Source: Shigella phage SH7. Taken from it: 64,000 bases of DNA. The DNA lies in sequence record KX828711; one strand, written 5' to 3'. This document shows positions 44,069-44,275 of this stretch, piece by piece. Position 1 is the stretch's first letter. Each line of letters begins with the position of its first letter. Under the pieces are notes generated by a model. It was given only the letters and a program-made list of their open reading frames with translations. It did not search any database and was not told the DNA's origin. A program made the position numbers and the translations under genes.

Positions 44069-44275
44069 TAGTTCATCCAAGAATATGTAGAAGGATATTT
44101 GGCAAAGTTAGGCTTATATCCTAATTTAACCATTTGTTTTGCTTTGCGAGTAAATCCTAAAGAACGCTCACCTTTAAGATATTTTTTTTGGTGTCATAGG
44201 CCCTTGATGCATCTGCCGACAAATAAAAAGGGCCATAGCATTAGGAACATCCTTAACTTTTAATTTATTGCTCAT
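44069..44275 (-). pseudogene. ORF between frd and td split by frameshift at an A8 tract (33 aa plus about 35 aa)
   Basis: ATGA overlap with frd stop; TAATG overlap with td start; frames differ by +1 at A8 (plus-strand T8 44182-44189). Confidence 0.35.

Follow-up and report, generated by a model that had tools for sequence, protein, structure and literature searches.

The DNA between frd and td in Shigella phage SH7 (sequence record KX828711; the window is the whole stretch of 64,000 nucleotides analysed here) most probably carries a recent, ordinary frameshift allele (C changed to A, with a further A added), which knocks out an accessory gene and leaves td uncoupled. The gene is the PHROG 9550 gene, an already catalogued, uncharacterised accessory gene of T4-like phages. 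A preliminary description of this DNA had seen in the spacer a single small ORF, coupled to both neighbours and broken at a homopolymer, and this core reading is supported by the present analysis. Three explanations had been offered for it, namely a sequencing indel, a recently inactivated inserted gene, or expression by transcriptional slippage or +1 frameshifting. The second one fits best. The homology search of the repaired protein, which had been proposed as a check, returned hundreds of intact copies.

The features of the locus are listed in Table 1. The 33-codon ORF, its ATGA overlap with frd and the A8 tract followed by the stop were all found in place. Reading on in the +1 frame from the tract gives 37 codons (YLKGERSLGF...YSWMN) up to a TAA at 44068-44070. 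This stop shares its final A with the td ATG at 44066-44068 (TAATG), as confirmed both in the minus-strand reading of 43200-45200 and in the ORF list. The separation of frd and td, given earlier as about 200 bp, corresponds to a real insert, but the exact spacing from the frd-stop ATGA to the td ATGA is 207 nt in the window and 206 nt in relatives. Once one A is taken out, the ORF encodes a 68-aa product that matches PHROG 9550 end to end (residues 1-68 of 68, E = 2.9e-45, 153 bits), so the two parts are not a chance pair of ORFs. The assignment of frd agrees with the Pfam DHFR_1 match to the identical frd gene in L008. Promoter and terminator scans of 43900-45200 gave only background-level signals.

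Table 1. Features of the frd-td region of the window.
Feature	Positions	Strand	Basis
frd, dihydrofolate reductase, 194 aa	44272-44856	-	ORF list; annotated frd in relatives
frd TGA stop overlapping small-ORF ATG (ATGA)	44272-44274 (TGA); 44273-44275 (ATG)	-	
AATGA direct repeat, left copy, bounding the insert	44272-44276	-	Junction compared with T4
5' part of the PHROG 9550 gene, original frame, 33 codons and premature TAA (44174-44176)	44174-44275	-	
A8 tract (T8 on the + strand), within a variable protein linker	44182-44189	-	
10-bp hairpin AUCUUAAAGG / UCUUUAGGAU, -7.9 kcal/mol, with the premature stop in the 5' arm	44141-44179	-	
3' part of the PHROG 9550 gene, +1 frame, ...YLKGERSLGFTRKAKQMVKLGYKPNFAKYPSTYSWMN*	44068-44181	-	
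AATGA direct repeat, right copy, bounding the insert	44065-44069	-	Junction compared with T4
td, thymidylate synthase, 286 aa (286 codons), intronless	43208-44068	-	

In phage T4 (NC_000866), the small gene is absent and frd and td overlap directly (ATGA), an overlapping junction reportedly described by Purohit and Mathews in 1984. The T4 junction shows the same overlap of the frd stop with the next start, and td opens with the same MKQY codons. In the window, in contrast, a gene of 206/207 nt bounded by AATGA repeats is interposed, so that frd couples to the small ORF and the intact small ORF couples to td. Removal of one AATGA copy together with the intervening DNA yields exactly the T4 frd/td junction, and a deletion between the repeats may therefore explain the clean presence or absence of the gene among Tequatrovirus genomes. 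The earlier statement that frd and td normally abut in T4-type genomes holds for T4 itself, but the complete insert was present in 136 of the 593 phage-collection records matching the frd/td flanks (about a quarter). The insert is thus a common presence/absence polymorphism and not an oddity of one genome.

The lesion was defined base by base against phage EPIMRB01, the closest full relative in this stretch. Relatives read CCAAAACAATAT (P-K-Q-Y), whereas the window reads CCAAAAAAAATAT. Over the ORF, the only differences from EPIMRB01 are C>A at ORF position 91 and one extra A, and the frame 3' of the tract is identical to the intact gene at every nucleotide. The form of the tract in relatives is AAAACAA (Lys-Gln) and not A7; the break does lie at an A8 homopolymer, as proposed, but it is not a simple expansion from A7 to A8. 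With a 91-nt query centred on the tract, the best match among the 136 covering records of the phage collection was 97.8% (one gap and one mismatch), and none reached 99%. The tract falls in the linker between two conserved protein modules, which is the most variable and indel-tolerant part of the family alignment. A natural variant of 73 aa (P0009) has a 5-residue insertion in the same linker (…QGRTTPKHMTPKQYL…), indicating that the linker tolerates in-frame length changes.

The repaired protein is 98.5% identical (67 of 68 residues) to the product of the uninterrupted ORF that over 130 phage genomes have at this site, and the exact intact protein, with Gln32, occurs on 332 contigs in a collection of 15 billion proteins. 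Homologs were found by tblastn in 236 phage records, each as one uninterrupted piece with at least 80% query coverage. Identity is 97-100% in Tequatrovirus and Dhakavirus, about 80% in Klebsiella Marfavirus-type phages, 60-68% in T4-like phages of Enterobacter and Serratia, and about 43% in phAPEC8-like myoviruses, with a length of 66-77 aa throughout the four phage lineages. In Escherichia/Shigella/Yersinia, Klebsiella and Serratia phages of the T4-like type, the gene lies directly 5' of td. The overlap of its stop with the td start reads TAATG in the window, EPIMRB01 and Serratia phage 4S and TGATG in Klebsiella phage F48. In both F48 and 4S, extra ORFs lie between frd and the family gene, and in phAPEC8 the family member is placed within a block of small ORFs. 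Many Tequatrovirus and Dhakavirus genomes list the gene as a 'hypothetical protein'. Copies such as those of EPIMRB01 (XLL18565.1), fPS-90 (g234c) and pSs-1 share with the window the locus, the sequence and the ATGA and TAATG overlaps; the window differs from them in that its frame is broken by C>A and the extra A in the linker.

In comparison with the orthologs of F48 and 4S, dN/dS was 0.08-0.16 (Nei-Gojobori), which indicates that the small ORF is under protein-level constraint (purifying selection), and 11 columns are invariant in a 28-sequence family alignment. The window gene shares with the family the full-length profile match, the position 5' of td with the overlap and this protein-level constraint, while the uninterrupted frame of 66-77 codons is lost. 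Since its frame stops after 33 codons and the 236 homologs are uninterrupted, the window copy is a frameshifted allele or a pseudogene. The only other interrupted copy among homolog-bearing records is that of a sister assembly, GCA_900013605.1.

With a pI of 10.3, a net charge of about +10.6 and 13 Lys/Arg versus 2 Asp/Glu, the encoded 68-aa protein is very basic, and AlphaFold2 with the 28-sequence alignment predicted three helices, at residues 13-24, 29-38 and 43-50, with a mean pLDDT of 76. Pfam at E <= 10 gave no match to the repaired protein and none that was consistent over the 28 family members. NCBIfam and a PDB sequence-profile search gave no match either, and Foldseek against BFVD returned the family itself and nothing further. 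An exhaustive profile search of 1.84 billion representatives retrieved just 14 clusters, nearly all standalone proteins of 42-96 aa, and a literature search for the frd-td small ORF found no paper discussing it. The charge suggests that the protein may bind nucleic acid. As a working assumption, it would be a small accessory factor that binds nucleic acid or a host protein and is expressed together with the dTMP-synthesis genes.

In public records, the family gene is unannotated in JS98, JS10 and Paracelsus, and it is called from the internal Met27 in F48 (L002 2501-2707) and IME339, giving a 42-aa product. Shinka and PYPS2T are likewise among the inconsistently annotated records. Elsewhere the gene is labelled 'DUF4858' or 'flagellar biosynthesis protein', and neither Pfam nor any other family search made here supports these labels. 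Several public records thus omit or truncate the PHROG 9550 gene, and the frd-td 'spacer' of the window should be annotated as a frameshifted copy of it.

Long homopolymers are classic sites of indel errors on several sequencing platforms, so the eighth A could be an overcall of a true A7, which would leave an intact gene with Gln32Lys in the linker. A lysine would be tolerable at this position, given the Lys-rich and length-variable linkers of phAPEC8-type homologs, and the perfectly kept frame 3' of the tract also agrees with such an artefact. However, an exact-pattern scan of IMG/VR returned one contig with the A8 allele, FACG01000097.1, which belongs to a separate assembly (GCA_900013605.1) and has a different consensus. 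This contig is 99.1% identical to positions 36573-45167 of the window; five SNPs and a mosaic patch at 38960-39218 set the two apart, with length differences only inside the patch. The patch and the SNPs identify it as a separate consensus of the same lineage; as the two sequences with A8 hardly differ (100% identity over the 5.7 kb surrounding the site), they represent one lineage and not two independent mutational events. A systematic overcall at a true A7 could be shared by both assemblies, but they are equal in length outside the patch over 8.6 kb, including an A7 run at 37926-37932. Over the approximately 40 kb alignable to EPIMRB01, which served as reference for the indel comparison, indels that are not multiples of three were compensated pairs in divergent segments or fell between genes or near their ends. 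No other unpaired frame-breaking indel was found over this length, which argues for an assembly without a general homopolymer problem. Moreover, the A7 form is absent from IMG/VR and the phage collection, and the exact K32 protein is absent from the 15 billion proteins. Metagenome contigs, GTDB genome contigs and complete E. coli genomes did not contain the A8 allele. The proposal of a plain random sequencing indel is therefore weakened, because A8 is shared with an independent assembly and no other unpaired frame-breaking indel was found. An artefact of sequencing or assembly is considered improbable, and A8 is probably a genuine heritable allele, as judged from these comparisons.

That the ORF is a decayed remnant without meaning, derived for instance from a homing endonuclease or other inserted DNA, and was never functional or has long ceased to be so, has next to no probability. 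Selfish inserts are frequent in T4-type phages at sites like this one, between two conserved genes, and the lack of any Pfam, NCBIfam, PDB or fold match would suit a remnant. Nevertheless, the ORF is under strong purifying selection, its length of 66-77 aa is kept over four lineages down to the phAPEC8-like homologs at about 43% identity, the three-helix model is confident enough, and no degeneration is seen beyond the single tract lesion. A homing-endonuclease remnant of the seg/mob type (GIY-YIG, HNH, NUMOD) was rejected, because the Pfam search found no nuclease motif and the ORF is under purifying selection. On these comparisons the remnant reading is in effect already refuted. The third of the original options, recoding at the A8 tract, is very unlikely as well. 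Here, A8 would direct transcriptional slippage or +1 frameshifting, and both the 33-aa and a 68/69-aa product would be intended. The frame would be restored by loss of one A or gain of two in the transcript, or by tRNA-Lys slipping on AAA_A before AUA, with ...MTPKKYLKGER... or ...MTPKKKYLKGER... as junction peptides. The tract is indeed slippery, a P-site tRNA-Lys re-pairs perfectly in the +1 frame, and the hairpin of Table 1 lies just 3' of the tract. Against this, none of the 136 Tequatrovirus and Dhakavirus records aligned there has the tract, all of them showing the gap and the mismatch, and 236 out of 236 homologs are encoded in a single frame. The hairpin also occurs in intact relatives, its conservation does not extend to the F48 or 4S orthologs, and the 116-nt region folds no better than its shuffles (z = +0.46). 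Furthermore, only one or two mutations separate the A8 allele from the intact gene, which leaves no room for a signal to have evolved around the tract. Two marks of a programmed site, a tract conserved among two-frame homologs and a conserved stimulator (structure, SD-like sequence or slow codon), were both lacking.

The length of the tract also bears on recoding. T4-type phages are transcribed by the host RNA polymerase. In a reporter study of the E. coli enzyme, deletion-type frame restoration was undetectable on poly(A) up to A8 and insertion slippage needed at least 8 A (PMC6260861), thresholds that may not be those of the T4-modified polymerase, while ribosome sliding was robust at A11 with little at A9-A10 (PMC4363877). 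By these published values, A8 would be at or below the slippage threshold of the E. coli polymerase and below that of ribosome sliding. Genes rescued by slippage, such as those with poly-A tracts in Buchnera, Shigella spa13/mxiE and Citrobacter tssM, are likewise out of frame with poly-A at the break, and in the bacterial examples considered the runs comprise 9 A or T, some of them conserved (reviewed in PMC5009743). The tract of the window, in contrast, has 8 A, is private to one lineage and would require a deletion on poly(A). With no tract in the 236 records, no conserved stimulator and an A8 at or below the published thresholds, expression by slippage or +1 frameshifting is left unsupported; some low unprogrammed leakage at A8 is plausible, but it would not be a designed feature. 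It is likewise very unlikely that the A run works as a mutational on/off switch, a contingency locus made hypermutable by C>A, whose length flips within phage populations. If it did, the small basic protein and the coupling that feeds td would be toggled, for example in response to a host factor or a defence sensing the protein.

The composition of the window was also compared with dinucleotide shuffles. No A/T run of at least 8 other than the frameshift tract occurs in the 64 kb, one A8 against 30.7 ± 8.4 expected, and six A7 positions were counted against 83 ± 12 expected. This avoidance of A/T runs is consistent with long runs being mutationally unstable and selected against rather than maintained. 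The depletion of runs of at least 7 illustrates selection against slippery runs in T4-type genomes.

Some neighbouring features were observed in the course of these comparisons. A 243-aa ORF at 39655-40386 (minus strand), between nrdA and nrdB, matches NUMOD1 at E = 1e-5, above the Pfam cutoff, and HNH just below the cutoff. These matches point to a probable free-standing homing endonuclease, placed where T4 has mobE. EPIMRB01 has no gene between nrdA (ending at locus position 23954) and nrdB (starting at 24006). The mosaic patch, of about 260 bp, lies inside nrdB (38477-39691, minus strand), contains nearly all the differences from FACG01000097.1 and is also highly divergent from EPIMRB01. 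Since it adjoins the putative endonuclease gene, it may be a co-conversion or target-site tract. Both td and nrdB are continuous in the window; in T4, group I introns harbouring I-TevI or I-TevIII split the two genes. On the other side of frd, the ORF in the frd.1 position (44853-45113, minus strand, 86 aa) has a single-base indel relative to EPIMRB01 near its 3' end, at about 44869. As a result, it shows an altered C-terminus and an ATGA overlap with frd, where EPIMRB01 has a 3-nt gap.

The preferred explanation is thus a frameshift by ordinary mutation. In the intact state, ribosomes would travel from frd through the small gene to td via the overlapping stops and starts of one operon. In the lineage of the window, C>A would have made a long A run of AAAACAA, with the gain of one A besides, in either order or through a single C>AA event. 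Replication slippage in runs, the Streisinger-type frameshift, is a textbook mechanism in phage T4, with frameshift hot spots at A runs in rII and lysozyme, and the A gain in this T4-type genome would have occurred in the same way. The allele shares with those frameshifts the single-base gain of A and the polar truncation; it differs in being a natural allele of an accessory gene, in a run that was first lengthened by a substitution. The wholly unchanged downstream frame indicates that the mutation is very recent. Templating of C>A by the adjacent quasi-palindrome was considered and dropped, as on inspection the hairpin extended outwards leaves the mutated position unpaired.

Translation would end after 33 codons. 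The 33-aa product retains predicted helix 1 only, without helices 2 and 3. Seven of the eleven invariant residues, including Gly40, Met48, Gly52, Tyr53 and Pro55, are missing from it, as is most of the C-terminal conserved module. The loss of both helices and of these residues points to a null or strongly hypomorphic allele, and the window allele is most likely null. Since termination would fall 105 nt 5' of td, coupling into td by termination-reinitiation is presumably lost in the A8 allele, and td would be initiated independently. By inspection, only a weak Shine-Dalgarno-like GGA is found upstream of the td ATG (ttcttggatgaacta).

As a natural knockout of an uncharacterised accessory gene by textbook T4 mutagenesis, the finding is of little weight in itself. 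T4 and about three quarters of the related records lack the gene, so its loss is evidently tolerated, and this absence suggests that the small gene is dispensable. The A8 allele would add evidence that a conserved, td-coupled and very basic 68-aa protein is dispensable for viability, and it provides a ready-made mutant for studying the function of the protein and the dependence of td on the coupling.
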